Shown piece by piece: positions 25,245 to 41,600 of a stretch of 64,000 bases of DNA. Position 1 is the stretch's first letter. Each line of letters begins with the position of its first letter. Below the pieces are notes generated by a model. The model made no database searches. It saw only the letters and a program-made list of their open reading frames with translations, and was not told the origin of the DNA. Source of the DNA: an uncultured Lachnospiraceae bacterium (lineage in GTDB: Bacteria; Bacillota; Clostridia; Lachnospirales; Lachnospiraceae). A program made the position numbers and the translations under genes. The stretch lies in the NCBI GenBank assembly GCA_910584725.1, contig CAJUBE010000006.1, forward strand, positions 14,801-78,800, read 5' to 3'.

Positions 25245-26087
25245 TTAAAAAGCGACAGATTTTCCGGCAAGAGCGCGCGCCTGCGGAATCGTCATACCGT
25301 GATATCTCTTAAATTCCCGCATGAGATGCGCCTGATCCGTATATTGCAGCAGGCAGACCTCATCCATGATCTGCCGGCACGGCACGGTAAGGATATCCTG
25401 CCACAAATTCTGATAGCGCACAAGCGAGGCAAAGGTTTTCGGCGAAACGCCCATATTCTCCTGAAATACGCGCTGCAGGTGCCTGCCGCTCACGTGAATG
25501 TCCCGCGCCAGCTCATCCATCCGCAGCGCGCCGCGGCGGGAAAGAATCTCCGCCACCGCATCCATGAAAACCGGCTCCTCCCGCCGCAGATCCATTCTTT
25601 GAAACAGCGCCCCTTCCGCCAGTTGCACCCGCTCTTCGATCCCCGTCGTCTCCCACAGCCTCTGCCCCAGAGCGCGCGCAAGCCATGAAAAATAGCCGCC
25701 TGCATCACCGTAAAAATTCCTGCACGTCCGCATGGACTCCTCCGCGAAAAGGACCGCGCTCCACGCATAAAAACGGACGGCAAAAACCGATAAGCGCTGA
25801 CTTACCATGTTTGCGCCGCCGCCTGAGAACGCCCTGTCATCGATGCCGCAAAATAAATCCGACAGACTGTTATCCGTATAATTAACCGTAAATATCACAT
25901 CCATACAGGTGTCCGGCACCACCACATTCTCCGTACCCACCCCGGCTTCCAATGTATAGATATCCCTGCTTCCCCAGAAACAGCGGATGTAAGGCTTAAG
26001 CGCCGCACACGGTTCAATCTCCACATAGGAATCGCTGTGGCGGTAAGGCATTGCCGTGATGGGGGTATAGTTTTTAAAGCACTTCAT
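25245..26087 (-). CDS. AraC-family transcriptional regulator
   Basis: C-terminal HTH_18 pattern LARDIHVSGRHLQRVFQENMGVSPKTFASLVRYQ...QAHLMREFKRYHGMT. Confidence 0.8.
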   Translation of the reverse strand: MKCFKNYTPITAMPYRHSDSYVEIEPCAALKPYIRCFWGSRDIYTLEAGVGTENVVVPDTCMDVIFTVNYTDNSLSDLFCGIDDRAFSGGGANMVSQRLSVFAVRFYAWSAVLFAEESMRTCRNFYGDAGGYFSWLARALGQRLWETTGIEERVQLAEGALFQRMDLRREEPVFMDAVAEILSRRGALRMDELARDIHVSGRHLQRVFQENMGVSPKTFASLVRYQNLWQDILTVPCRQIMDEVCLLQYTDQAHLMREFKRYHGMTIPQARALAGKSVAF

Positions 26088-26116: not shown

Positions 26117-29100
26117 TCAAACCATTGCGTTTGCATTTATCCGCTCAATCACCTTTCGGATTCCTGCCCAGACATACATGTCCGTAAAAATCTCCACCAC
26201 ACTCCCCTTATCGGTAAAGGGCGATTCCTGTAAAACGGAAAAATCCTTCAGCATACCGTTATGGACAATGTATTCTACAATCTGATTGACAAAGTAAATC
26301 TGCCGGCTGTCCATATTCGTCCCATCCAGATATTGCACAAATGCCTCCTTCGCCGCCTTCATATCCAGTCCGACAATCTCGCGGACAAATTCTCCAAGCG
26401 GTTTCTTTCCGTACTCCCTCTCATAGTCTTCCCTCGTGCCAAGCTCTCCCCAGAGGATTTCTTCAAGAGACCTGATATCAAATTCACTCAGCGGCTTATT
26501 GCTCTTTAATTTCGCAATCGCAATATGATTCTGATTCTGGCGGATATAATACTCCGCCTTTGCCTTATAATTCTTTAAGTCGTCGTTTTCCAGTTCCGCC
26601 TCATGCCACTGCACAGATAAAATATCATCCGAAAAATTTGTCTCGTATTTAACCGATTTCTGCGGAATATATTTCATCAGACTGCGAAGTTCCTCCCGCA
26701 TATATTCAAACTCATCGATTCCGGCATTCTCCACATAGCTTGTCTGTAAAATTTTCTGGATTAAATCCGTCTTTACCTGTATCTCCGGGATATTAGCCAC
26801 ACCCGCTATTGCCTTCACGTGTTTTTGCAAGTCGTTCTTTGCTCTTGTATACGGCTTATCCGAAAGGTAAGCCAATTCCATCCCATACATCAGTGCGTCA
26901 AACCGCACCGCGCCCGCGTCGTCCCCATCCGGCAAAATAAGCGGCGCAAGCTCTTCTTTCACATCCTGCGTATCTTCATAACTGATAGACTGGTAGCCTT
27001 TCACATCGGCATACAAATCAACATATTTCAAGTGCTGTTTTACCGCGAAATTTTCTCTGTTAAGCTCCCGCACTTTACCGCTCATCGTCTCAACCAGCTT
27101 TTCCCGATAAGCCGTCAGGCGTTTCACCTGACGGCTGGCATCCTGCAGCTTATAGGCAAGCTGAAATTCCAGATTAAAAATCGCACTCTGTAACGCCATC
27201 TGATTCGCCGTCGGTTTTCCCTCATTTACCCTGAAAAAAGCAAAGTTTCCACAAAAATCAAAGATATAGAATTTCTGCTTGTCCTCCCCATCTATCAGTC
27301 CCGGACACAATCTGGTGCCCCTGCCAATCATCTGCCAGAATTTTGCCTTACTCAACACTTTCTTGAAAAAAACGAGATTTAACACTTCCGGCACATCAAT
27401 CCCCGTATCAAGCATATCCACGGAAATCGCAATCTGCGGCAATTTTTCCCCCTCAGCGAACTCGTCTATCGCCTTTTGCGCATAAGCCGTGTAATTGTCA
27501 ATCACCCTCGCAAAATCCTGCCCGTTCTTAGACAAGTGCGGATATTCTTTATTAAATATCTCATAAATTTTTTCCGCGTGATTGTGGTTCACCGCAAAAA
27601 TAATCGTTTTTCCCAGCTTCTCCCCGTAGTCAACCTTCAATCCATCACCCATCACAACGTGAAGAACCTGTCTGATCGTATCCTCGTTAAAAAGCCATTT
27701 GTTAATTGCGGACGACTGTATTCTTTCCGGGAAATTGCCGTCCTCGTCCTTAAAAGTAGCCTCATACTCCTCTTTGTCTTCCGTCGATAATTCGTCGTAG
27801 GCAATCCCCTGCTCAATAAATTTTACCTCCGATTCCACCGACAAATAATCAACCAGATATCCGTCCTTTACAGCCTGCGCTAAATCGTAACCGTAAGTCG
27901 GCACACCGTCTTCCAGGTCAAAGACAGCATACGTGTTTTTATCAATTTCTTCCTTCGGTGTCGCCGTCAGTCCCACCAGCAAAGCATCGAAATAAGTAAA
28001 GATATCTTTATATTTATTGTAGATAGACCTGTGCGCCTCGTCGCAGATAATCAAATCAAAGTGCCCGCAGGAAAAAATTTTTCCCTCCCGGTCTGTTGCA
28101 TTGTCGATCAGATTGATCATTGTCTGATAAGTGGAAAATACGCACCGGGCATGATAATTGGACTTTTCCTCCACCACATTGACAACAGACAACTCCTCCG
28201 GGAACTGATTGACAAAACTTCTCTTTGCCTGTGTGACAAGAGAATTGCGGTCAGCGAGAAACAGGACGTTTCTAATCCATCCCGCATCCATCAGCGCCTT
28301 GCAGAGCGCAATCACCGTTCTGGTCTTTCCTGACCCTGTCGCCATGACAAGGAGCGCTTTCCTTCGGTTTTTCTCATCAAAGCTGTCACAAATCGCCCGG
28401 ATTGCCGCCGCCTGATAATATCTTCCCGCAATCTTTGTATCCGCCACAATGTTTTTTAACGACATCCTCGAGTTTCGCAGATTAAACCATTTCTCCAGAT
28501 CTCTCTTGGAATAAATCCCGGACACCTGCCTCTCCGGGTACTGTCCATCTACCATTCTTGTCTCAAAACCGTTTGTCAAAAAAACAACCGGTCTTCTCTT
28601 ATATTTCTGCTCCAGACTATCCGCATAAAGTTTTGCCTGCTGCCGTCCTCTTGCCACATCTTCACAGGTGCTTTTCGCCTCGATAATGGCAAGCGGTTTT
28701 TGCGCATCGTCATAGAGCACATAATCGACGCGCCCCTTTCCCGACTGATTCGGCATCCCGTCGACTTCTACCTCGTTAAGCCAGTTCTTTCCCTCAATCC
28801 AGCCCGCATCCTTAAGCATTTCGTCAATGTAGATTTTCCGGGTCTTATATTCGGATAAATCCAAAGGTTTCGGCACATAGGCGAGCTGCTTTGCCTCTCT
28901 TCTCCTCGTGAGCTCTTCCTTTAACGCCTTGTTTTCCTCAATCAAGGCTTTCAAGTCAACGTCCGCAAACTCGCTGCGAACAGCCGTCTCTTCCGGCATT
29001 TCTTTTCTGAGAAGCGAAGCGTCAAACTGCCGCTCCTCATAATCCTTCGAGTAACAGCATGCCACGAAATCAAGAAAGAAAAACAGATTTTGCAGACAGA

Positions 29101-29425
29101 GCGACGCCTCATCAAAGGTAATCTTTGCTCCGGCATGAGCCGCCCGGTTGCCTATCTTGCGAATCAAGTCCATCCGCCGCCAAAGACTCCTGTCTATGAG
29201 CGCATGGAACTCCTCGGTACTCATCAGACTATGTAAATTATCCTGATAAGGCTTTTGCAGGGAATCGTCAACCGAATACAGCCATTTGACCGCAAACTCC
29301 ATCGCGCGGCGGCAATTGATGACGCACGCCTCGCGGTCTATGGGGAGCAGTTTTTCGGAAGATATGGCGACCTCCGAGAAGCTGGAAAATTGTGGTTCTT
29401 TTTTTAGGTAGTCGAAATTGGTCAT
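26117..29425 (-). CDS. hsdR: type I restriction enzyme R subunit (N-terminal DUF4145-like domain + nuclease + SF2 helicase)
   Basis: RVDYVLYDD...PLAIIEAK (PD-(D/E)xK), LLVMATGSGKTRT (motif I), LIICDEAHRS (DEAH), MIGRGTRL (motif VI). The start is set at MTNFDYLKK with aagggaga upstream. Confidence 0.9.
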   Translation of the reverse strand: MTNFDYLKKEPQFSSFSEVAISSEKLLPIDREACVINCRRAMEFAVKWLYSVDDSLQKPYQDNLHSLMSTEEFHALIDRSLWRRMDLIRKIGNRAAHAGAKITFDEASLCLQNLFFFLDFVACCYSKDYEERQFDASLLRKEMPEETAVRSEFADVDLKALIEENKALKEELTRRREAKQLAYVPKPLDLSEYKTRKIYIDEMLKDAGWIEGKNWLNEVEVDGMPNQSGKGRVDYVLYDDAQKPLAIIEAKSTCEDVARGRQQAKLYADSLEQKYKRRPVVFLTNGFETRMVDGQYPERQVSGIYSKRDLEKWFNLRNSRMSLKNIVADTKIAGRYYQAAAIRAICDSFDEKNRRKALLVMATGSGKTRTVIALCKALMDAGWIRNVLFLADRNSLVTQAKRSFVNQFPEELSVVNVVEEKSNYHARCVFSTYQTMINLIDNATDREGKIFSCGHFDLIICDEAHRSIYNKYKDIFTYFDALLVGLTATPKEEIDKNTYAVFDLEDGVPTYGYDLAQAVKDGYLVDYLSVESEVKFIEQGIAYDELSTEDKEEYEATFKDEDGNFPERIQSSAINKWLFNEDTIRQVLHVVMGDGLKVDYGEKLGKTIIFAVNHNHAEKIYEIFNKEYPHLSKNGQDFARVIDNYTAYAQKAIDEFAEGEKLPQIAISVDMLDTGIDVPEVLNLVFFKKVLSKAKFWQMIGRGTRLCPGLIDGEDKQKFYIFDFCGNFAFFRVNEGKPTANQMALQSAIFNLEFQLAYKLQDASRQVKRLTAYREKLVETMSGKVRELNRENFAVKQHLKYVDLYADVKGYQSISYEDTQDVKEELAPLILPDGDDAGAVRFDALMYGMELAYLSDKPYTRAKNDLQKHVKAIAGVANIPEIQVKTDLIQKILQTSYVENAGIDEFEYMREELRSLMKYIPQKSVKYETNFSDDILSVQWHEAELENDDLKNYKAKAEYYIRQNQNHIAIAKLKSNKPLSEFDIRSLEEILWGELGTREDYEREYGKKPLGEFVREIVGLDMKAAKEAFVQYLDGTNMDSRQIYFVNQIVEYIVHNGMLKDFSVLQESPFTDKGSVVEIFTDMYVWAGIRKVIERINANAMV

Positions 29426-29454: not shown

Positions 29455-30045
29455 TCAAAATATGGTTTCACTTTTCTTTCGGATACATCGTTCAAACAGA
29501 TCTTCCATTTTTTCGTAATCACATAAAAAGGATTGCTCACTCGCCTTTAGCATTTCTTCTCTGCTGACCTTTCCAAAATTTATTACATACCCATTGTGAA
29601 GCGTCAATGTCCTTATAAACTCACGTTGACTGCGTCCGTTGCCTTCACGAAGAGGATGCAGGGCATTAATCTCCGAAAAATAGTACGCCAATCGAACCGA
29701 AAGCTCTTTTCCGCCCAAACCTTTTAGATAATTTTCTGCTCTCAGCTTTCCAAAAATTTCTTCCGCCTGACTTTCTATAAATTTCGCATTGCAAAACATG
29801 TTCCCTTTTGCAATATCCACTTTTCTGATTTCCCCTGCCCATTCGTATATATCCTGAAAAATATACTTGTGAATTGATTGCAAATGCCTTAAGTCAAACT
29901 TTCCCTGAATAGGTTTATCCACCAATTCAAGAATACGGAGCATTGTCAGGCGCTTTTCCATCTGCCTAAGCTGCTCCATATCCCGTATACCCATCCTGTT
30001 TTTCAATACATCCGACCCCGGATAACAGTATACCTTATCAGACAT
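29455..30045 (-). CDS. Fic/DOC-family toxin (class I, antitoxin-inhibited type)
   Basis: Fic motif HPLREGNGRSQREF. The ATG overlaps the antitoxin stop as TAATG. Confidence 0.85.
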   Translation of the reverse strand: MSDKVYCYPGSDVLKNRMGIRDMEQLRQMEKRLTMLRILELVDKPIQGKFDLRHLQSIHKYIFQDIYEWAGEIRKVDIAKGNMFCNAKFIESQAEEIFGKLRAENYLKGLGGKELSVRLAYYFSEINALHPLREGNGRSQREFIRTLTLHNGYVINFGKVSREEMLKASEQSFLCDYEKMEDLFERCIRKKSETIF

Positions 30046-30371
30046 TATCTGCCCTCTCCTATGATCCGTTTCCGCAATTCATCGCCCGTTACTTCCCCAT
30101 TTTTATAAGCGTACAGTAATTGTAAATCCTCTTCTGTCAGCTCTATCCCTTCAAAAGCCATTGTAGCTGCCACTTCTTCTATCGTTTCCGCTTTGGTATA
30201 TACCGAATGATTCATTTTTACTTTAAAGGGAATCCCCTCAGTAAGTATAATCTGCTTTATCATCATATTGACAACGGCAGATAGATTAGTTCCCAGCTTT
30301 TCCAAAATTTCAGAAGCTTTTTCTTTATCTTCCGCAGAAGTCCTTACTTGCAATAAAGATGTATTGGACAT
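30045..30371 (-). CDS. antitoxin: RelB/DinJ-like ribbon-helix-helix fused to a VbhA-like Fic-inhibitory domain
   Basis: N-terminus SLLQVRTSAEDKEKASEILEKLGTNLSAVVNMMIKQI...IPFKV is DinJ-like. The C-terminus carries the inhibitory motif TMAFEG, i.e. (S/T)xxxE(G/N). AGGAGG lies 9 nt upstream. Confidence 0.7.
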   Translation of the reverse strand: MSNTSLLQVRTSAEDKEKASEILEKLGTNLSAVVNMMIKQIILTEGIPFKVKMNHSVYTKAETIEEVAATMAFEGIELTEEDLQLLYAYKNGEVTGDELRKRIIGEGR

Positions 30372-30396
30372 AATAGCAGCCCTCCTTTCGTCCCCC

Positions 30397-30425
30397 ATTA
30401 TACAACATAGTAATTACATTGTAAA
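30397..30425 (-). promoter_or_regulatory. consensus sigma-A promoter in front of antitoxin-fic-hsdR
   Basis: Minus strand reads TTTACA-17 nt-TATAAT (tttaca atgtaattactatgttg tataat). Confidence 0.6.
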
Positions 30426-30438
30426 CGTGAGCCTGCTT

Positions 30439-31620
30439 TTACCCAAAATATTTCTGCATCAGGCTGTCAAACAGAAGTTGAAGCTGGTCGATGGATTGCT
30501 GTATTTTAAATTTTGGTTCGTCGATATCATGGACGAAGGCAGCAAAAGATTTCTGCAACTCAAGTGGTGGCAGTTTAAATCGTAAATGCTTTATTATTGT
30601 TAAATTTAAACCATCCATAATCGCGCCTTTTGAGTTCATATGCATTTGAGCAATTATCTCAGGATGGATTTGAAAGGCATTAGCAAGAAAATATGGATCA
30701 GCCAATTCATCTTTTAATGTCAAACATGCTAAATGCTTGGTATTTATAGCTAAAGGTATATCTTTTGGAATAACCGCCGAGCGTCCAACTGTTCCCATGA
30801 TTGTAATGATTACATCTAAAGGTTTTACAGTATATCGTTTTAACTTCTGATACTTTTCCTTTGTGATATACCGCATTCTATTATATGAAAATTTGTTTTC
30901 TACAGCATTGTCAATACCTAAAACAAAAATTCCATTATCTACAAATTCATCATGATGTAAGGCACTTCCAAAAGGTCCGGTTCTCATGTCACTACAAATA
31001 TCTTCCATATTGACAGTATCCCAATCGTCATTATTATCAAACATCTCTACAAATCGGGATTTGATTACCTCGTCAAGCATAATAAGCTGCTCTTGTTGCA
31101 ATTTTATAATTTTACAAATGATGTCCAACTTTCTGCATATATTGCGCTGTTCTTCAATGGCTGTATCTTTGATATTAAATCTAGAAATATAATCATCCGT
31201 TTTTAAATTATGGAGTCCTGTTGTTTTGTTTTCAAATGCTTTTGTCCCACCTTTTCTGTAATTTGAATATAGTGAATAAAATATATATTTCGGCTCCCAT
31301 TTATCTTTATCTTTAATTCTAAGAAGTCCAGTAAAATTATTAAAAAGATATTTGTGCTCTAACCCTTCAAAAAAGACTACTCTTCCAACTGGCTGCTTAT
31401 CACTTCCACCAGACTTCTCAATAATAATATCACCTTGTATCAAATATTTTTCATCAATATTTTTTTTAGGTATTTTTCTTGTCACTATATTTTCATAATT
31501 CACAATTCCTTCATTAGTGAAATTCGTGGTTCTTAAAACAGGTATACCTGTACCATCAACATCATCTATTCCCCATTCTCCAGATAAAGCCTTTCCAGTA
31601 ATCTCAATCAATTTTGCCAT
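30439..31620 (-). CDS. hsdS: type I R-M specificity subunit
   Basis: Two target-recognition domains separated by conserved helices (EEQRNICRKLDIICKIIKLQQEQLIMLDEVIKSRF ... LELQKSFAAFVHDIDEPKFKIQQSIDQLQLLFDSLMQKYF). ATG at 31620 with GGAG 6 nt upstream. Confidence 0.85.
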   Translation of the reverse strand: MAKLIEITGKALSGEWGIDDVDGTGIPVLRTTNFTNEGIVNYENIVTRKIPKKNIDEKYLIQGDIIIEKSGGSDKQPVGRVVFFEGLEHKYLFNNFTGLLRIKDKDKWEPKYIFYSLYSNYRKGGTKAFENKTTGLHNLKTDDYISRFNIKDTAIEEQRNICRKLDIICKIIKLQQEQLIMLDEVIKSRFVEMFDNNDDWDTVNMEDICSDMRTGPFGSALHHDEFVDNGIFVLGIDNAVENKFSYNRMRYITKEKYQKLKRYTVKPLDVIITIMGTVGRSAVIPKDIPLAINTKHLACLTLKDELADPYFLANAFQIHPEIIAQMHMNSKGAIMDGLNLTIIKHLRFKLPPLELQKSFAAFVHDIDEPKFKIQQSIDQLQLLFDSLMQKYFG

Positions 31621-31686
31621 TTTATGCTCCAATCAATCTATGCTGCTAAAGCAATCACTTCTGTTACCAAATCATAATGTCCAATC

Positions 31687-32739
31687 CTATTCACAAACAA
31701 TACCCTCTATAACATTATTCAATGATTCAAACCGCAATTTTCTACTTCCCAAATCTGTAGATGCTCGAATACCAGATGAATAATTACGTATATTTATATC
31801 CTTTTCGTTTATTTCAAGTTCTTCTTTAATCGATTTTTGAAAATTAGTAACCCTATCACCAAAATACGTTAAGCGTTCGCCCAGTCTCTCTCTCACATTT
31901 GAAGAAAATGGCATTTTATGGTTATATTCAGCAAGCACCAAAAAGAGAGTATAAAAATCTGTCATATTACGCCAACGAGTTTTCTTTATATTAGGTAAAA
32001 TTTGCAAAATCTCTTTTGCTACACTATTAAAAACACCTTTTATCCGTTCACTATCACTAAACTCTTCCTCATATAATTTATAATAATAATCCAATTTCAC
32101 CTTTTTATTTTGATGACCATTTAAATATGCGATCACAATTTCGCTTATAAATTCAGCATCTAACATACGCCTTATCTTTTGTGGCGTAAAAACACCTATA
32201 TCTTCCCAATAGGTCTGATCCGAAATATCATTAATCATAACAATAAATTCGCCCGAATAAGTAGCCTGTCTCAGTTCCTGTTGGTTCAACCTTTCATTAT
32301 TCTTATTAATTCTTTTAAAAATATTACGTATTATATCATCATCTATATCCGGCAACAGTCTTATCACAAACTTATACTCAAAAAACCTTTTTTTATCGTT
32401 TGGCGATAACTCATCAAAAGTCAAATTTTCCCACTGTTCACTGGTTTCAGTTGGCACTAATGAAAATTCATTATTTATAAAATCTAAAACCGTTCTCAAT
32501 CTTTGCTGTCCATCAACCACAACAAATTGGCTTTCTCCCTTTTCATTCACACGTTCTTGCAAATATATTTCTGGAATTGGATAGCTCCTTAAAATGGAAT
32601 CAATTAAATAACTTTTTTGATTAATAGTCCAAACGGGATTACGTTGAAAGGTTGGTTTGATTACCAAACTATCCCCCTCCTTACTTCTTTGATTAAACCA
32701 CGCAATATTTTGTTGTGTACTTCCTAAATAATCTTTCAT
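31687..32739 (-). CDS. DUF262 (ParB/Srx-fold, GmrSD N-terminal-like) protein lacking a DUF1524/HNH nuclease domain
   Basis: IKPTFQRNPVWTINQKSYLIDSILRSYPIPEIYL...FVVVDGQQRLRTVLDFI is the canonical DGQQR motif. I see no His-Me/HNH motif in the C-terminal ~200 aa. The ATG overlaps the upstream stop as TAATG; GGAGG lies 9 nt upstream. Confidence 0.8.
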   Translation of the reverse strand: MKDYLGSTQQNIAWFNQRSKEGDSLVIKPTFQRNPVWTINQKSYLIDSILRSYPIPEIYLQERVNEKGESQFVVVDGQQRLRTVLDFINNEFSLVPTETSEQWENLTFDELSPNDKKRFFEYKFVIRLLPDIDDDIIRNIFKRINKNNERLNQQELRQATYSGEFIVMINDISDQTYWEDIGVFTPQKIRRMLDAEFISEIVIAYLNGHQNKKVKLDYYYKLYEEEFSDSERIKGVFNSVAKEILQILPNIKKTRWRNMTDFYTLFLVLAEYNHKMPFSSNVRERLGERLTYFGDRVTNFQKSIKEELEINEKDINIRNYSSGIRASTDLGSRKLRFESLNNVIEGIVCE

Positions 32740-33344
32740 TATGAAATACCTCCTAAAATTATTTCTTGACATTCTCTAACACTATTGATTTGATAATCTC
32801 GAAATGATTTGTTATCCTTATATATCCTAAAATTAATCTCTCTTTCATTTATAGGCGGATTACTTCTCATTTCATTTATTACTTCATTCCAAAGTTTTCC
32901 AAATGATAAAATTGGTAATATCTTGTCAGTTGCTATAGTTCCCCAATATATTAACCTATTTCTATGATCCTCTAAAGCTTGTTTCATATTATTATTTAAT
33001 TTATAATATTTTTGGTTTCTAAGTTCATGCCATGCAATATCAAAATAATAATTAGATATTATCCCTACATCAATATCCGAATATTGGCTAAACTTTTTAA
33101 AATTCTTCTTTGGATTTAAGCTATAACCAAGACAAGCTGAACCAGTAATTATTATATCTCTCGCATCTATCTGAAGTCTAGATGCCATTTTATGTTTCCA
33201 TTCATAATACTTTACTTCATTACCGCAAAAAATATTAGGTGTTTTTTCCATTATCCACTTGGAAATGAATACATCTGGCGATATTGTTACTAAATCATTT
33301 CTAATATTTTCCAAAAGTTCATCTGTGTATTGCATCTCTTCCAT
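32739..33344 (-). CDS. pol-beta-superfamily nucleotidyltransferase-like protein (unclassified)
   Basis: IIITGSACLGYSLNPKKNFKKFSQYSDIDVGIIS has the G-S ... D-x-D arrangement of minimal NTases. The start is set at MEEMQ (agagggg 8 nt upstream). Very AT-rich. Confidence 0.5.
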   Translation of the reverse strand: MEEMQYTDELLENIRNDLVTISPDVFISKWIMEKTPNIFCGNEVKYYEWKHKMASRLQIDARDIIITGSACLGYSLNPKKNFKKFSQYSDIDVGIISNYYFDIAWHELRNQKYYKLNNNMKQALEDHRNRLIYWGTIATDKILPILSFGKLWNEVINEMRSNPPINEREINFRIYKDNKSFRDYQINSVRECQEIILGGIS

Positions 33345-33462
33345 AAGCATAGCCCCTCTAGACGTTATCAAAATGTATAATATCAATCATATCTTACTCT
33401 TCTAAAAATTCTCTCTTTCTCTACACTCTTGCACTTTGCAAAAAATGCAAATTCCCAACTAT

Positions 33463-34971
33463 CTACAACTCCTCTTCCAGCATCCCCTTAAGTTCCTCCA
33501 ACTCCTCCCCAATCTGCCGCTCCAGCTCAAATATCTGTTCCAGTATTTCTCCTGTCGGCGGGTATTCTACGGGCACATATTCCTGCTTCTTATATTTATT
33601 AATCGACAAGTCGTAGTCGTTTTTCGTAATTTCCTGCTTTGGCACAAAAAACGACTTCTCCGTCCTCTCCCTTTCCGTTTCCCCGTCCCTGTTGTGGAAC
33701 CGTTCTATGATATCAGGAATATCATTTTCATTTATAGGGCTTCTCTTATCATCCAGGCTGAACCCGTCCGCCTGCATATCATAAAACCAGACTTGATCAG
33801 TCCCGCCATGGTTGGTCTTTGTAAAAATCAGAATCCCTGTGGAAACGCCTGCGTATGGCTTAAACACTCCGGGCGGCATGGAGATCACCGCTTCCAGTCT
33901 CTGATTTTCCAACAGTTCTTTTCTGATATCTTTATGCGCTTTTGAAGACCCAAACAGCACACCATCCGGAACAATGCAGGCACATCTCCCGCCCACTTTC
34001 ATCATCCTCACAAACAACGCAAGAAACAAAAGTTCCGTCTTCTTTGTCTTGCATACCTTAAGCAGATCCGCGGACACCGCTTCCGCATCAAGACTCCCCT
34101 TAAAAGGCGGGTTCGCTAAAATCAGGGAATACTTATCTGCGTCCGAATTTTGTTCCGACAGACTGTCCCTATACTCGATAAAAGGATTCTCCACCCCGTG
34201 CGTCATCATATTCATGGCGCCGATGCGCAGCATGGTTCTGTCCATATCATAGCCATGAAACATATGATTCATATAATGGTCTTTTTTCACTTTGTCATAA
34301 AAGATTTCTTCCTTGTGTTTTTCCTTCAGATATTCTCCTGCGGTCACAAGAAATCCAGATGTGCCGCAAGCCGGATCGCATATCACATCCTCCGCGGAAG
34401 GTTTCATCAGTTCCACCATCATACGGATAATATGTCTCGGTGTGCGAAACTGTCCATTTAACCCCGACTGCGCAATCTTAGAAAGCAGATACTCATATAC
34501 ATCTCCTCTGATATCCACATCCTTCACCTGCTCCATCAGCGCAAAAATATCTTCCAGTGAATCCACCACCTTTGACAAAAGAAGCGGCGTCGGCAGCTTA
34601 AAGATTGCGTCATCCATATATTTTGCATAGGCGCTATCCTTGTCTCCATGCAGATTTTTCATGAACGGGAACACCCATTCCTGCACGACCGAATACATTT
34701 TCTGCGCCGGGAAGTCATGGAACACAGACCATTTCAAGGTTCTTCCCTCCACCTCTCTGTCTCCGACGCTTACCTGCCCGGCAAAAATACTCTGAAAGGG
34801 CAGTCCAAGCATAACACTCTCTTTCTCCCGCATGGTATCCGAAACATCCAAATCATGAATGAATATCAAATAGGTAATCTGCTCGATCACTTCCAGCGGA
34901 TTCACCAGACCGCCCGCCGCAAACGCATCCCAAAGGGCATCTATTTTATTTCTCAGCTCTCCTGTAACCAT
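33463..34971 (-). CDS. hsdM: type I R-M N6-adenine DNA methyltransferase subunit
   Basis: HsdM N-terminal domain, FRTPRHI, ICDPACGTSGFL (motif I), LANPPFKGS (motif IV). The ATG overlaps the upstream fic stop as TGATG. Confidence 0.9.
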   Translation of the reverse strand: MVTGELRNKIDALWDAFAAGGLVNPLEVIEQITYLIFIHDLDVSDTMREKESVMLGLPFQSIFAGQVSVGDREVEGRTLKWSVFHDFPAQKMYSVVQEWVFPFMKNLHGDKDSAYAKYMDDAIFKLPTPLLLSKVVDSLEDIFALMEQVKDVDIRGDVYEYLLSKIAQSGLNGQFRTPRHIIRMMVELMKPSAEDVICDPACGTSGFLVTAGEYLKEKHKEEIFYDKVKKDHYMNHMFHGYDMDRTMLRIGAMNMMTHGVENPFIEYRDSLSEQNSDADKYSLILANPPFKGSLDAEAVSADLLKVCKTKKTELLFLALFVRMMKVGGRCACIVPDGVLFGSSKAHKDIRKELLENQRLEAVISMPPGVFKPYAGVSTGILIFTKTNHGGTDQVWFYDMQADGFSLDDKRSPINENDIPDIIERFHNRDGETERERTEKSFFVPKQEITKNDYDLSINKYKKQEYVPVEYPPTGEILEQIFELERQIGEELEELKGMLEEEL

Positions 34972-36041
34972 CACGCCTCATCCTCCCAATTCCATTTGTA
35001 TTTTGTATATCTGCCGCCGCCTATCTTAATAATCCTTCCATCCTTTACCAAATCGTTAAGCGTCCTCTGCACCGTAGTCTGACTGATATCAGAAAACATC
35101 TGTACCAGTTCTCTTTTCGTTATCACGCCGATATGTTCCCTTATTTCCTCTGCAATTCTGTCCGGTTTTGACATTTTATGCCGGGTAACTGTTTTTGCTC
35201 TTTCAAAAAACTCCCGGTAAGCTGCCGCAGTTACGCCAAGCATATATTTTACAAAGAAGCTGTAATCATTCCGATTCTCATGCCAATCTGCCGAGCTATC
35301 CGCCAGTGCCTCGTAATATGCCTCCTTAGACTGCTCAATCAATTTTTCTATACTAATATACTTACCCACAAAATACCCTGCTCTGTACAATAAAAGCAGT
35401 GTCAATAATCTGCTCATCCTGCCGTTTCCGTCTCTGAAAGGGTGAATGCACAGAAAATCCAGAACAAACATGGGGATGATCAGCAATAAATCCGCCTGTC
35501 CTTCCTCTACAACCTTTCCATACGCCTCACATAGCCCTTCCACCGCTTCCTTTGTCTCCCACGCCGGAACGGTCTGAAATCTCACCCTCTTATTTCCTGT
35601 TTCGTCCTGCTCTTCAATCACGTTATCCACAACTTTATAGGCACCGCCTGTCCCCGTTCCTTCAAACTTATACAGATCACGATGCATCTGTAAGATAAAG
35701 GAGGCTCTCGCTGGAATATGCTCATAGTTCTCGTGAATCGTATTGAGCACATCCCGATACCCTGCTATTTCTCTTTCGTCCCTCGACCTAGGCTTTGTCT
35801 TATCTAAAACGAGTTTCCGCAGCTGCTCATCTGACGTATGGATACCCTCAATTCTGTTTGAACTTTCCGTGCTCTGTATTTTCGCAATCTGCACCAAATC
35901 TTCCAAAACATCCGCATGCCTGTCCGCTATCAGACGCTGTTCTCCCCGAAACTCATGTATTGTGGTTAAATATCCTACGATTTCCGGCGTCAGGAGGCTC
36001 TGCCATTTATTTTCATAATCATAATTTCTCAAACATGTCAC
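34971..36041 (-). CDS. class II Fic-family protein (N-terminal inhibitory helix, C-terminal winged HTH)
   Basis: Inhibitory motif SNRIEG, Fic motif HPFRDGNGRMSRLL, C-terminal wHTH ITKRELVQMFSDISQTTVQRTLNDLVKDGRI. Confidence 0.85.
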   Translation of the reverse strand: MTCLRNYDYENKWQSLLTPEIVGYLTTIHEFRGEQRLIADRHADVLEDLVQIAKIQSTESSNRIEGIHTSDEQLRKLVLDKTKPRSRDEREIAGYRDVLNTIHENYEHIPARASFILQMHRDLYKFEGTGTGGAYKVVDNVIEEQDETGNKRVRFQTVPAWETKEAVEGLCEAYGKVVEEGQADLLLIIPMFVLDFLCIHPFRDGNGRMSRLLTLLLLYRAGYFVGKYISIEKLIEQSKEAYYEALADSSADWHENRNDYSFFVKYMLGVTAAAYREFFERAKTVTRHKMSKPDRIAEEIREHIGVITKRELVQMFSDISQTTVQRTLNDLVKDGRIIKIGGGRYTKYKWNWEDEA

Positions 36042-36078: not shown

Positions 36079-36107
36079 ATATTATCTTGTAATTACGTCA
36101 ATGTCAA
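36079..36107 (-). promoter_or_regulatory. candidate sigma-A promoter of the fic-hsdM... operon
   Basis: Minus strand reads TTGACA-17 nt-TAATAT in an AT-rich spacer upstream of the fic start. Confidence 0.45.
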
Positions 36108-38767: not shown

Positions 38768-40774
38768 TCATTTTCTCACAATCCGATAATAAGTCCCCGC
38801 CGTCATCACATAACTTCCCCCGTAGAGAAGCGCCACCACCGCCGCCACACCCACACAGCAGCGAATCAAAAGCCCGGTGTCGAAAAACCGCAGCGCCGCC
38901 AGAAGCCCGTTCACCATCACAAGTCCCGCCGCCGTGTGCAGAAGCGCCCCCACAAGAGGCAGGAAAAACACGAGAAGAATCTGCCTGCGGATCGTTCCTC
39001 GGATTTCCGCGTCGCTCATGCCGACCTTCCTCATAATCCCGAAACTGTCCTGATCCTCGTACCCTTCCGACACCTGTTTAAAGTACATGATGAGCAGCAG
39101 GCACATAAAGAACAGAAGCCCGAATACCATACCGATAAAGAGCAGGCCGCCGTTCATGGATCGGTCCTCATCCCTGCCATCCAGACCATTATCAAGCCGC
39201 AGAAAACCCTGCTGCCCCTGACACCACACCGACCACGCTTCGATAAAGGCGTCCCGCTCCGTCTCCTTCCCGTCAAGCAGAATGCCGAGACGCCTCTCAC
39301 CGCTGTGCAGAAACCCTTCCAGATCGGTCACGCCGTTCGTCACCGCCCATGCCGACACAAACCGATCAAACGCCTGCCGGTCCTTCACCACAATCACATA
39401 TTGGGCGGTAAAGTTGAACATCCTGTTTTTTGCCTGCGGAAAAGGATAAATGCGCTCCGGCTCCTCCTTGACCGCCGCTTCCACACCCAAAAAGTTTACG
39501 CCGTCATACCCGAAAGCCGATCCCGTGGAGTACAGCAGCACTTCGTCCTCCCCCAGACTTTTATTCTGCCCTTCCAGACGATTATAGTCATCCAACAAAA
39601 GCAGCGTGACAGCGAACTGGTCAGCAAATTCCATTCCGGCGGCGGATACAAACGCATTGCTTCCCTCGGACCTTCCGCAGTTAAGTACCATGGCGTAGTA
39701 ATCGTCCAGCCGCCCTACTCCCTGCCCGTACTTTTCTGAGAGTTCCGCCGCCTTCTCCCGCGCCTTTTCCACCACATCGCTGTTCTCCGAATAGGAAACT
39801 TCCATATCATATGGGTAATCATAGTAGGCGATCTGATCCATCCCCGTCCACAAAGTGACCGTACAGGTCAACGTAATCAGAAGCATTGTGGAGAAAATGC
39901 AGATATTGGACAGCCCCGCCGCATTCTTTTTCATGCGGTACAACATGCCCGAGATGGTCACCTGATTGGACGGTCTGTAGTATATCTTTTTCCTTTTCTT
40001 CAAAAACCGCAGGAAAGCCACGCTCCCCGAGGTGAACAGAAAATACGTGCCCAGAACCACAAGCAATACCGCCAGAAAAAAGTCCGTAAAAATCATGCTG
40101 TCCAGTTTGCTGGTGACGGAAATATAATAGCCGCACGCCAGAAGAACCACGCCCGCCGCAGTCCACAGCCCGATCCGCCGGGGCTCCTTCTCCCCCTTCC
40201 TGCTCTCGGACAAAAGCTCTGTCGGCTTCATGCGGTAAAAGCCCCAAAGGCTTTTTACATAGACGCAGAGAAAGACAGCCGCAAAATATCGGAGCGTCTC
40301 GATGACCGCATCCATGGAAAAACGAAACGCCACATCCACAGGTAACCGCGACATGCGAAGCAGCAGGAGAAACATCAGCTTATTCAGCACAAAACCGAGT
40401 ATGATCCCCGCCGAAACGCTGACCAGATACATTCCCAGATTTTCCCAGAAAAGCATGATGCCGATGTGCTTCCGTTCCAGTCCCAAAAGGCTGTAAAGTC
40501 CCAGCTCCCGCTTCCGACGTTTCTGTAAAAAACTGCCCGCATAGAGCAGAAACAACAGCAGAATGCTGGAGAGCAGCCCCTTTCCCAGCGCGAGCATCAG
40601 CCACGCATACGCCGCCTTTGGCAGTCTCTCCATCAAGTCGTTGTGCAGAAGGGAAGAGAACAGATAATAGCTGAACACGGAAAAAAAGCACGCCATGAGA
40701 TAGGGACGGTAAACCAGCTTATTCTGCTTCACTCCTCTGAACGCCATGACCGGCAGTAATTTCATTTTATTCAT
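38768..40774 (-). CDS. BceB-type ABC permease (FtsX domains, 10 TM, large extracellular loop)
   Basis: About 670 aa with two FtsX-like halves and a ~200-aa loop, immediately downstream of a MacB/BceA-type ATPase. Confidence 0.85.
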   Translation of the reverse strand: MNKMKLLPVMAFRGVKQNKLVYRPYLMACFFSVFSYYLFSSLLHNDLMERLPKAAYAWLMLALGKGLLSSILLLFLLYAGSFLQKRRKRELGLYSLLGLERKHIGIMLFWENLGMYLVSVSAGIILGFVLNKLMFLLLLRMSRLPVDVAFRFSMDAVIETLRYFAAVFLCVYVKSLWGFYRMKPTELLSESRKGEKEPRRIGLWTAAGVVLLACGYYISVTSKLDSMIFTDFFLAVLLVVLGTYFLFTSGSVAFLRFLKKRKKIYYRPSNQVTISGMLYRMKKNAAGLSNICIFSTMLLITLTCTVTLWTGMDQIAYYDYPYDMEVSYSENSDVVEKAREKAAELSEKYGQGVGRLDDYYAMVLNCGRSEGSNAFVSAAGMEFADQFAVTLLLLDDYNRLEGQNKSLGEDEVLLYSTGSAFGYDGVNFLGVEAAVKEEPERIYPFPQAKNRMFNFTAQYVIVVKDRQAFDRFVSAWAVTNGVTDLEGFLHSGERRLGILLDGKETERDAFIEAWSVWCQGQQGFLRLDNGLDGRDEDRSMNGGLLFIGMVFGLLFFMCLLLIMYFKQVSEGYEDQDSFGIMRKVGMSDAEIRGTIRRQILLVFFLPLVGALLHTAAGLVMVNGLLAALRFFDTGLLIRCCVGVAAVVALLYGGSYVMTAGTYYRIVRK

Positions 40775-40799
40775 AGTCACACTCACCTCCCAGCTCCCT

Positions 40800-41600
40800 C
40801 TATGCCTGCCCTTCCACGTCAACATCACCCGCCGTATATTCCTGCCCGTCCTGCGCCTGCATCACCGTCAAGGCGTCCGATATCATGCGGTACATTTCGT
40901 CTCTGCTCCGTTCGCCCCGGTAAATCTGGTGGAACACGCAGCCGTCCTTGATAAAGAGCACTCGCCCCGCGTGCGCCGCCGCCTGAATGCTGTGGGTCAC
41001 CATGAGAATCGTCTGCCCCTCCCCGTTTATTTCCCCGAAAAGTTTCAAGAGTTTCCCGGACGCTCTGGAATCCAGCGCCCCCGTGGGCTCGTCCGCCAGC
41101 ACGATATCGGGATCCGTGATCAAGGCGCGGCACACCGCCGCCCGCTGTTTCTGTCCACCCGACACTTCGTAGGGATATTTATCCAGAAGATCCGCGATCG
41201 CCAGTTTGCGGGCAAGAGGCAAAAGACGCTCCTCCATCTCCCGGTAAGGCATCCCTGCCAGCACCAGAGGCAGGAAAATATTGTCCCGCAGGGACATGGT
41301 GTCAAGCAGGTTAAAATCCTGAAAGACAAAGCCCAGATGATCCCGTCTGAACGCGCACAAATCCTTCTGGCTGACCTTGGAGAGTTCCTGCCCATTTAAA
41401 AGCACCTGTCCGCTGGTCGCCGTGTCCAGAGAAGCCAGAATGTTTAGGAGCGTGGTCTTTCCCGAGCCGGACTCCCCCATGATTGCCACATACTCCCCTT
41501 CCTCCACGGAAAAGTTCACGTCGTTTAACGCCTGCACCTTGACCGAGCCGAAGCGGGTGGTATATATTTTCTTCACATTTTTTACGGTTAACAGTGACAT
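40800..41600 (-). CDS. BceA-type ABC ATP-binding protein
   Basis: Walker A GESGSGKTTLLN, signature VSGGQKQR, Walker B ILADEPTGALD. Confidence 0.9.
   Translation of the reverse strand: MSLLTVKNVKKIYTTRFGSVKVQALNDVNFSVEEGEYVAIMGESGSGKTTLLNILASLDTATSGQVLLNGQELSKVSQKDLCAFRRDHLGFVFQDFNLLDTMSLRDNIFLPLVLAGMPYREMEERLLPLARKLAIADLLDKYPYEVSGGQKQRAAVCRALITDPDIVLADEPTGALDSRASGKLLKLFGEINGEGQTILMVTHSIQAAAHAGRVLFIKDGCVFHQIYRGERSRDEMYRMISDALTVMQAQDGQEYTAGDVDVEGQA

Follow-up and report, generated by a model that had tools for sequence, protein, structure and literature searches.

DUF262 proteins, which are ParB-like, recur as the sensor or switch of immune systems, namely GmrSD, BrxU, SspE, TgvAB, Menshen, PD-T4-2 and Dazbog, whose output is always a nuclease or RNase, and in every characterised DUF262 system this protein is the sensor or switch and not the killing activity (PMC12065111, PMC10952713). 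DUF262 genes embedded in type I restriction-modification (R-M) loci are already known, with RloF of Campylobacter, TgvAB and GmrSD-like proteins as examples (PMC3632139; 10.1101/2024.04.04.588119; 10.1101/2024.01.29.577857). In the present work, we analysed a stretch of 64,000 nucleotides from an uncultured Lachnospiraceae bacterium (contig CAJUBE010000006.1, positions 14,801 to 78,800; hereafter the window), in which two overlapping open reading frames (ORFs) of the minus strand, ORF A and ORF B, lie between hsdM and hsdS of a type I R-M operon (Table 1). ORF A encodes a nucleotidyltransferase (NTase)-like protein and ORF B a DUF262 protein. The two genes are kept together in many phyla, and the pair is a candidate DUF262-centred defence system with a new Pfam-less NTase-like partner family.

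Comparison with described systems

The DUF262 protein of the window has the build of NsnA of Menshen (NsnABC), i.e. a ParB-DUF262 domain with the motifs QRxxxW, DGxQR and FxxxN followed by a helical C-terminal domain, and Menshen often adjoins type I R-M systems (PMC12065111). However, the ABC-type ATPase NsnB, encoded right downstream of NsnA, is absent here, where the next gene is hsdS, and no conserved downstream gene was found in the 62 genome loci described below, AAA_15 or AAA_21 neighbours being present in only 2-3 of them. NsnC, which has an inactive PIN domain and a nuclease/toxin domain, has no counterpart in the window, nor was one found among conserved neighbours. The partner is instead a single upstream NTase-like gene without any PADLOC match, NsnC included (E ≤ 1).

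PD-T4-2 of E. coli ECOR65 is likewise composed of two genes built on a nuclease-less DUF262 protein, and ORF B matches PD-T4-2_A. Its activity against T4 has been validated in the strain of origin (PMC9519451), and its second protein is annotated as HEPN, PF18735 (PMC10952713). In contrast, ORF A has beta strands in an NTase-like order and no PD-T4-2_B match (E ≤ 1), and its distant family members likewise match neither PD-T4-2_B nor HEPN. TgvAB, too, has two genes, is built on DUF262 and lies inside a type I R-M operon; it needs both proteins, TgvA being a DUF262 protein without nuclease and TgvB a DUF262 protein with a DUF1524 His-Me nuclease (10.1101/2024.04.04.588119). There are thus two DUF262 proteins and a DUF1524 domain in TgvAB, whereas the window pair has one DUF262 protein, no DUF1524 and an NTase-like partner. 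The DUF262 NTPase with its DGQQR motif is shared with GmrSD, BrxU and SspE, which often lie within R-M, BREX and Hma loci (10.1101/2024.01.29.577857), and BrxU and SspE are the best structural matches of ORF B. These are, however, one-protein enzymes whose C-terminal part is a DUF1524 HNH nuclease, a domain that ORF B does not have.

Among NTase-containing modules, HEPN-MNT pairs are frequent in defence islands and R-M operons (PMC3710099). The window pair shares with them the GS...SDxD motif of the NTP_transf_2 type, the upstream position of the NTase gene and the overlapping stop and start. The HEPN protein is absent, as the initial annotation of this DNA had stated: none of the eight operon genes matches a HEPN family (Pfam). 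ORF A is also, as noted there, longer than MNT antitoxins (201 aa against about 98-125 aa), and carries a 10-residue conserved insert between GS and DxD. In MNT-HEPN pairs the NTase gene stands upstream of its partner, with stop and start overlapping, while AbiEii and MenT are small pol-beta-fold NTases that constitute the toxic output of two-gene abortive-infection or toxin-antitoxin (TA) systems. The latter present no sequence relation to ORF A (no PADLOC match including the Abi models, E ≤ 1), and the antitoxins with which they are paired are of the AbiEi or MenA type and not DUF262 proteins.

Membership in Menshen, PD-T4-2, TgvAB, GmrSD/BrxU/SspE or HEPN-MNT was therefore rejected, as the pair is without a defining component of each, and Dazbog (DzbAB) was rejected as no Dzb model is among the PADLOC matches of either protein (E ≤ 1). 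No description of a DUF262-NTase or ParB-NTase defence pairing was found in the searchable full-text literature, in which recent supplements are partly covered. The pair, proposed at first sight as an undescribed module, is thus undescribed relative to PADLOC-DB 2023 and this literature.

Linkage of the two genes

The TAA of ORF A (32741..32739) shares one base with the ATG of ORF B (32739..32737), and the TAATG overlap of the initial annotation is read directly from the sequence. A genome scan for ORF A relatives, with one genome per species, gave 62 loci in many phyla; a DUF262 homologue is present immediately downstream on the same strand in 61 of them, the exception being at a contig edge. 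In the IMG/VR viral contigs, all 13 ORF A loci are paired (13/13), including members 23-28% identical to the window protein, and distant relatives at 23-30% identity are still paired with DUF262. The converse search, performed with a DUF262 alignment, gave 81 loci, and the ORF A gene was found immediately upstream in 74 of the 75 with enough upstream sequence. The single exception, L112, has a serine recombinase in its place. Comparison of L112 with L104, both human-gut metagenome contigs, showed 99.95% identity from 52 nt before the DUF262 start onward, and upstream of this breakpoint L112 encodes the 499-aa recombinase instead of ORF A. The DUF262 gene of L112 is thus orphaned by a recent rearrangement. 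Of the two regularities that had been put as questions at the outset, adjacency stood in these loci, whereas a constant location in hsd loci did not.

The spacing between the genes is −8 to +9 nt in 49 of the 55 intact pairs, 15 of which overlap by 1 or 4 nt. The two proteins also diverge in parallel: the pairwise identities over 50 loci are correlated with a Mantel r of 0.79, which none of 2000 permutations reached. In one viral contig (IMGVR_UViG_2910832237_000010; L084:7851-9737), a single ORF of 628 aa contains ORF A at residues 50-246 and the DUF262 and helical domains at residues 258-581; this fusion is one example only, for which a sequencing error is possible. Clustering of 477 neighbouring ORFs from the 62 loci revealed no conserved third gene. 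Therefore, the pairing, the spacing, the fusion and the co-divergence together indicate that the two genes are an obligate unit inherited together.

The DUF262 protein

Residues 20-161 of ORF B correspond to Pfam GmrSD_N/DUF262 (E = 3.7e-23), with DGQQR at residues 76-80, and the DUF262 assignment of the initial annotation is thereby upheld. An earlier in-frame ATG exists at 32772; since the homologues have 349-350 aa and begin with MKDYL, the start at 32739 is right. Three DUF262 motifs are invariant in 45 homologues, i.e. FQRNPVW (QRxxxW), VDGQQR and IFxRINKNN (FxxxN), and DGQQR has a role in the binding and hydrolysis of NTP (PMC12065111; 10.1101/2024.01.29.577857).

In PADLOC, ORF B matches NsnA with an E value of 3.9e-43 (residues 21-346 against positions 61-381 of the 385 of the profile) and PD-T4-2_A with 4.9e-22, the NsnA score being about twice as high; the matches to HEC-05 and HEC-06 span only the first ~30-60 residues of the domain. 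The NCBIfam models DGQHR and DpdB match weakly, with 12-14 bits against cut-offs of 59-300. The AlphaFold model (predicted local distance difference test, pLDDT, of 84) is of the alpha/beta type in its N-terminal domain and consists of helices only in the second one, and Foldseek retrieved BrxU (3.4e-4), SspE (4.2e-3), ParB CTPases, KorB and sulfiredoxin (Srx). This architecture is the 'ParB-DUF262 + ParBDB' described for NsnA (PMC12065111). In the model, the helical part would correspond to a putative DNA-binding domain of the ParBDB type, as this domain is conceived in the same work (PMC12065111).

The nuclease half was said to be missing, and Pfam, the all-helical AlphaFold C-terminus and Foldseek agree on this point. 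ORF B has no Pfam match to DUF1524/HNH, and its C-terminal half contains no beta-beta-alpha element in the AlphaFold model. The conserved DH...N...N motif is absent and there is no conserved histidine, H209 being variable. The term 'nuclease-less' is therefore correct as regards the His-Me finger. ParB/Srx proteins are themselves reported to nick DNA, with ATP as a negative switch, in a passage of PMC12839542 that cites Maindola 2014.

The ORF A family

The relatives of ORF A make up 278 clusters at 90% identity, the best of them with an E value of 5e-130, and 1395 representatives at 50% identity (E ≤ 0.001). As the relatives reach 5e-130 for ORF A and 2e-222 for ORF B, both ORFs are real genes; the start ATG of ORF A is preceded by GAGGGG with an 8-nt spacer. 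Most relatives have 190-205 aa and are 'hypothetical' wherever a source annotates them. They are found in Bacillota, Bacteroidota, Pseudomonadota, Actinomycetota and Cyanobacteria, as well as in Chloroflexi, Planctomycetota and Spirochaetes, among other phyla. In PHROGs, the window protein matches phrog_32008 at 2.2e-48.

The sequence ITGSACLGYS...SDIDVGI, the pol-beta-type signature of the initial annotation, is present in the ORF at 32739..33344, at residues 66-95. In an alignment of 46 members, residues P36, D60, G68, G73, S75, P78, K80, S89, D90, D92, F101, W105, H127, R130, G135, T136, A138, D140, W152, R173, Y175, D177 and Y184 are invariant. Among 75 more diverse members, G68, S89, D92, F101 and W105 are still invariant, and S69, G73, S75, P78, D90, R173 and Y175 are at least 90% conserved. 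Because of this conservation across the diverse members, GS and DxD are among the most constrained positions of the protein. The family has in addition its own conserved elements, i.e. the SLNPxK insert, DHRxR and RIYKD. Judged from sequence, this conservation pattern argues for catalytic competence.

Probable nucleotidyltransferase identity of ORF A

The window protein itself gave no match in Pfam (also at E ≤ 10), NCBIfam, PADLOC (E ≤ 1) or by sequence in the PDB, and the PDB search with the family profile gave nothing usable. In the 75 diverse relatives, however, Pfam (E ≤ 1) detected PF01909 NTP_transf_2 in 30 (best E value 0.0011; all below the gathering score) and PF18765 Polbeta in 4, the next commonest family being found in 2 only. 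The PF01909 signal recurs in two more distant members. We aligned the family by hhalign to an MNT profile built from 46 bona fide MNT-type transferases, all with precomputed PF18765 and PF01909 annotations. The alignment (P = 2.4e-4, probability 44%, 35 columns) places the GS of ORF A on that of the MNT profile and its SDIDV on SDLDL, ORF A having 10 additional residues in between. The NTase-like identity proposed initially thus received weak but consistent profile signals, below curated thresholds.

The AlphaFold model of ORF A has a pLDDT of 88.4 and a predicted template modelling (pTM) score of 0.84. It contains helix 43-57, strand 64-67, the GS, helix 69-72, strand 91-96 with the DxD, and then helices, followed by strand 136-138, a helix, strand 170-175 and a helix, with four beta strands in total. 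This predicted order fits that of the minimal pol-beta NTase core. The pol-beta motifs hG[GS] and [DE]h[DE]h are found as ITGS, at the end of strand 64-67, and as SDIDV, in strand 91-96; about 20 residues separate GS from DxD, whereas 9-13 are usual. A candidate for the third carboxylate is D140 (GTIATD), after strand 136-138, which is invariant in the 46 members and not among the columns conserved at 90% or more in the 75. Distant members present D-P near this position, where the alignment is uncertain.

Foldseek of the model against the PDB gave no significant match (E ≤ 0.001), the best having an E value of 0.66 and a template modelling score below 0.3; the top of this sub-threshold list is mostly poly(A) polymerases and TUTase 4 (E about 0.7-10). 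In BFVD, NTases were found below threshold only, and the sole match under 0.01 is an uncharacterised giant-virus protein, which is uninformative. Considering these data together, ORF A, whose profile signals stay below the curated thresholds, is quite likely a divergent homologue of pol-beta-fold NTases, and it probably represents a new, divergent clade of this type.

Two other identities were considered for ORF A. HEPN was rejected, as beta strands are present and no HEPN match was obtained, and a PIN-like domain as in the N-terminus of NsnC was rejected since the GS/DxD pattern and the NTP_transf_2 signals point to an NTase.

Distribution and genomic contexts

The cassette is not tied to hsd loci. 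With the window's own proteins as queries, hsd genes were found in only 1 of the 62 genome loci. Copies 98% and 90% identical are located in syntenic Fic-hsdM-A-DUF262-hsdS-hsdR operons of Lachnospiraceae-type contigs (including L088 and L091), while another, 78% identical, stands by itself with ABC permease genes on one side and lepA on the other. In Enterocloster bolteae, a copy 82% identical has QatABCD and an AbiJ-like gene on one side and two RhuM genes on the other. Further copies are present on a 6.2-kb Cronobacter plasmid and on a Pseudoalteromonas megaplasmid.

A distant pair was found in E. coli strain 1500 (NZ_CP040269.1; L074:3286-4880), with proteins of 202 and 329 aa and a 4-nt overlap. 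In the P2-like prophage that carries it, no genes other than this pair are annotated from gpA to the portal gene gpQ, and among 5426 complete E. coli genomes the pair was found in 1. The gpA-gpQ interval of P2 is a documented defence hotspot (PMC9122126). On viral contigs, the neighbours include integrases, CI/CII-type regulators (repressors), Psu-like proteins and primases. In the INPHARED phage genomes, neither ORF A of the window nor the ORF A-like protein of E. coli has a match.

The genome neighbours are very diverse, comprising housekeeping genes, transposases and scattered defence genes, with matches to models of PARIS, Septu, Gabija, DRT, a CBASS effector, PD-Lambda-5 and R-M. The neighbourhood scans, in which crude ORF calls were pooled by position, document diversity and yield no formal statistic of defence-island enrichment. 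The GC content of the pair is more than 5 points below that of its flanks in 47 of 55 loci (mean difference −0.108) and is never more than 5 points above. The low GC and the diverse contexts are the signature of horizontally mobile accessory cargo that often lands in defence contexts. In seven loci (L044, L052, L054, L055, L057, L058 and L059), one or both genes are split or truncated and the cassette is decaying.

Variants of the family

In one divergent subclade, a DNA methyltransferase gene (N6_N4) directly follows and overlaps the DUF262 gene (L070:885-2955 and L073:5646-7487); this three-gene variant was found in no other fetched locus. On plasmid pM830MA of Aliarcobacter cryaerophilus (L069:4878-7537), an ORF A-family gene of 219 aa (family hidden Markov model, 5e-24) is accompanied, in place of DUF262, by the gene of a 647-aa DUF4365 (restriction endonuclease (REase)-like) protein with weak TPR matches. 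This locus is a partner swap for the NTase-like family.

Some members are irregular. The locus L134:964-4026 has an extra distant DUF262-like ORF (E = 7e-36) upstream of the pair, so that the genes run DUF262, A, DUF262. In P0178, a reverse-transcriptase-like N-terminus (YVDD) runs into ORF A at its middle; P0138 bears a Rhs-type PxxxxDPxGL motif and a C-terminal tip after ORF A, and in P0214 an internal deletion has joined the N-terminal half of ORF A to the C-terminal half of DUF262. These three are probably chimeras (e.g. of assembly) or decay products, possibly defence-island recombinants, and were not used as evidence. Domain fusions in the longer ORF A members were also considered and rejected, as the additional N-terminal sequence mostly has the appearance of wrongly called starts in genomes of high GC content.

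Possible function of the pair

The reading that we tentatively prefer, and to which we give a little less than even weight, is that of an autonomous, horizontally mobile cassette for defence against phages or other mobile elements, whose two products act as one complex with ORF A as the output. In the window, a type I R-M operon would have taken in this cassette, which would thus be an 'embedded' system. The defence role is suggested by the embedding among hsd genes, the E. bolteae island, the P2 hotspot, the carriage on plasmids and viral contigs and the likeness to NsnA. By analogy with the systems compared above, the DUF262 protein, with its helical DNA-binding-type domain, would sense invading, possibly modified, DNA, and NTP binding or hydrolysis would serve as the switch, as in GmrSD, BrxU and SspE. 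It would then control the NTase-like partner, which would replace the DUF1524, HEPN or NsnC of other systems and, on the model of AbiEii and MenT, may transfer nucleotides onto an RNA such as tRNA, a protein or the ends of DNA. Such nucleotidyl transfer would arrest the infection. The least certain step is the direction of control, i.e. whether ORF A is effector or regulator.

Several observations weigh against this reading. The NTase assignment is made of sub-threshold signals (0.0011 in Pfam; 44% and 35 columns in hhalign; no significant Foldseek match despite a confident model), and in many loci the neighbours are purely housekeeping genes. The gene order and the MNT-type nearest relatives fit ORF A as a regulator or antitoxin at least as well, and one ORF A relative is paired with a DUF4365 (REase-like)-TPR protein that is possibly self-sufficient. 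In the main rival reading, which we consider possible and rather doubtful, the roles are inverted: ORF A would be an MNT-type regulator that nucleotidylates (e.g. AMPylates) the DUF262 protein, and the latter the effector, by nicking of the ParB/Srx type, DNA clamping or NTP consumption, with infection relieving or triggering the modification. The only detectable relatives of ORF A are indeed MNT-type families (PF01909, PF18765), the upstream NTase gene with overlapping stop and start is the MNT-HEPN order, and the Aliarcobacter relative that precedes a DUF4365-TPR protein suggests that ORF A services various DNA-targeting partners. The reported DNA nicking by ParB/Srx proteins, with ATP as negative switch (the passage of PMC12839542 that cites Maindola 2014), would provide the activity. 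However, ORF A is twice the size of an MNT antitoxin, with the SLNPxK insert, DHRxR and RIYKD, no nuclease motif is visible in ORF B, and DUF262 is the sensor or switch in every characterised system (PMC12065111, PMC10952713).

The other explanations are less probable. The initial annotation had also suggested that the pair may be a nucleotide-modifying accessory of the R-M complex, and such a dedicated accessory might modify HsdR, HsdM, HsdS or DNA, or act as a PrrC-like backup upon inhibition of R-M. The genes are co-directional between hsdM and hsdS without intervening terminator-like sites, the arrangement is kept in the syntenic relatives L088, L089, L090 and L091, and a methyltransferase gene overlaps the DUF262 stop in L070 and L073. 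Nevertheless, hsd loci hold only the closest, 90-98% identical copies, the 78% identical one being already between ABC permease genes and lepA; hsd genes were detected in 1/62 genome loci with the window proteins as queries, and the E. bolteae, E. coli P2, plasmid and viral-contig copies are without adjoining hsd genes. As hsd genes rarely accompany the pair, this role is very improbable, and the accessory proposal is not supported. An equally slight chance is given to a DNA-modification module in which a ParB-like NTPase (cf. DndB, DpdB) and an NTase would install or regulate a DNA mark: ParB-like proteins act in the Dnd and Dpd systems (PMC12839542), and there are the weak NCBIfam DGQHR and DpdB matches and some methyltransferase-associated copies, but these matches stay far below the cut-offs (12-14 bits, where 59-300 are required), the pair is not accompanied by other modification genes, and a two-gene system of this kind without a restriction partner has no obvious selective value.

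A non-immune role, as a selfish addiction or maintenance module that combines ParB-like partition or silencing with a modifying enzyme, or as a plain TA, is unlikely, though less so than the two preceding ones. It would agree with the ParB-like fold of ORF B, with the carriage on plasmids, prophages and satellites and the GC content low against the flanks, and with the decayed or split copies in several loci, as expected of dispensable cargo. Against it, no ParA partner or centromere-like context was seen, and many chromosomal copies stand between housekeeping genes without visible mobile element. The P2 gpA-gpQ hotspot and the Qat/AbiJ surroundings are, moreover, typical of defence cargo (PMC9122126), and NsnA, the nearest family by sequence, is part of a defence system that has been validated (PMC12065111).

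Returning to the cassette as a defence system with ORF A as output, it would retain an NsnA-type sensor and have its output exchanged for a Pfam-less family that resembles a divergent NTase. If so, it would represent a new effector chemistry for the DUF262 sensor class and a clean two-gene model of a ParB-like NTPase that signals to a separate partner. A wider proposal, which we regard as rather unlikely in its entirety, is that of an unnamed, widespread immune family in which a ParB-like, NTP-gated DNA sensor is joined to a new pol-beta NTase clade, the output being nucleotidyl transfer or a nucleotide signal, in place of the nuclease or RNase of all other DUF262 systems, and the NTase re-pairable with further DNA-targeting partners, e.g. 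the DUF4365-TPR protein. The ORF A family is large and spans many phyla, including common human-gut bacteria such as Enterocloster bolteae, and the copy in the P2 hotspot of E. coli makes the cassette directly testable in a standard host.

Organisation of the operon

The features of the locus are collected in Table 1. The GC content is 0.276 for ORF A and 0.314 for ORF B. The corresponding values are 0.465 in hsdM, 0.462 in hsdR and 0.487 over the whole window, and hsdS, with 0.325, is low in GC too. The two genes are therefore the most AT-rich, as first described, with hsdS close to them. No terminator-like sites were found on the coding strand between the operon genes. The promoter-like site in the hsdM-ORF A spacer is a possible internal promoter for the cassette, in an AT-rich region where the count of such sites is not above shuffle expectation. 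The true start of hsdS is probably the ATG at 31620, preceded by GGAG.

Table 1 Features of the type I R-M operon and of the embedded gene pair, in window coordinates.
Feature	Position	Strand	Remarks
Fic-HTH (helix-turn-helix) gene	34971..36041	-	356 aa; C-terminal DIP2311-like/DeoR-type HTH
hsdM (type I R-M methylase)	33463..34974	-	Pfam N6_Mtase 2.5e-65 and HsdM_N; upstream neighbour, outside the cassette
Promoter-like site TTTAGA-18-TATTAT with TG	33377..33406	-	hsdM-ORF A spacer; consensus scan
ORF A, NTase-like	32739..33344	-	201 aa; first gene of the pair
Putative catalytic motif region of ORF A	33060..33149	-	ITGS (G68, S69), SLNPxK insert, SDIDV (D90, D92)
Translational coupling signal	32737..32754	-	AGGAGG (32749..32754), 9-nt spacer, TAATG
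ORF B, DUF262 protein	31687..32739	-	350 aa; Pfam GmrSD_N
DGQQR nucleotide-binding motif, residues 76-80	32500..32514	-	invariant in 45 homologues
All-helical C-terminal domain of ORF B, residues about 164-348	31696..32250	-	AlphaFold; covered by the NsnA profile match to position 381 of 385
hsdS (specificity subunit)	30439..31632	-	Pfam Methylase_S 1.9e-17; downstream neighbour
RelB/VbhA-like antitoxin	30045..30398	-	117 aa
Fic/Doc gene	29455..30045	-	196 aa
hsdR	26117..about 29425	-	HSDR_N/ResIII/EcoEI_R_C domains

The window thus presents a compact, stacked embedding: a single type I R-M operon has at least three modules inside it or joined to it. A second embedded module (29455..30398, minus strand) lies between hsdS and hsdR, where the end of the antitoxin gene abuts the start of the Fic/Doc gene at 30045; it looks like a pair of the FicTA/VbhTA type. 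The syntenic operons of L088 and L091 are without this module, their hsdS-hsdR gaps being of 263 and 32 nt, and the antitoxin-Fic/Doc pair is therefore an independent insertion into the operon.

The Fic-HTH gene overlaps the hsdM start by 4 nt and is kept before hsdM in the syntenic loci L088-L091; it is preceded by a promoter-like site, TTGACA-17-TAATAT (36079..36107). With the Fic/Doc gene, there are thus two different Fic genes in this operon. The HsdR N-terminus (about 29087..29353) is a DUF4145 domain (1e-14), followed by the HSDR_N/ResIII/EcoEI_R_C domains usual for this subunit, and as the orthologues have 1102 aa, the hsdR start is probably the ATG at 29425 and not the TTG at 29458. 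The operon is flanked by genes of an ABC ATPase and a FtsX permease (38768..41600) on one side and of an AraC-type regulator (25245..26087) on the other. The same flanking genes are present in L088 and L091, so that the R-M island occupies a conserved chromosomal site in related Lachnospiraceae-type genomes.

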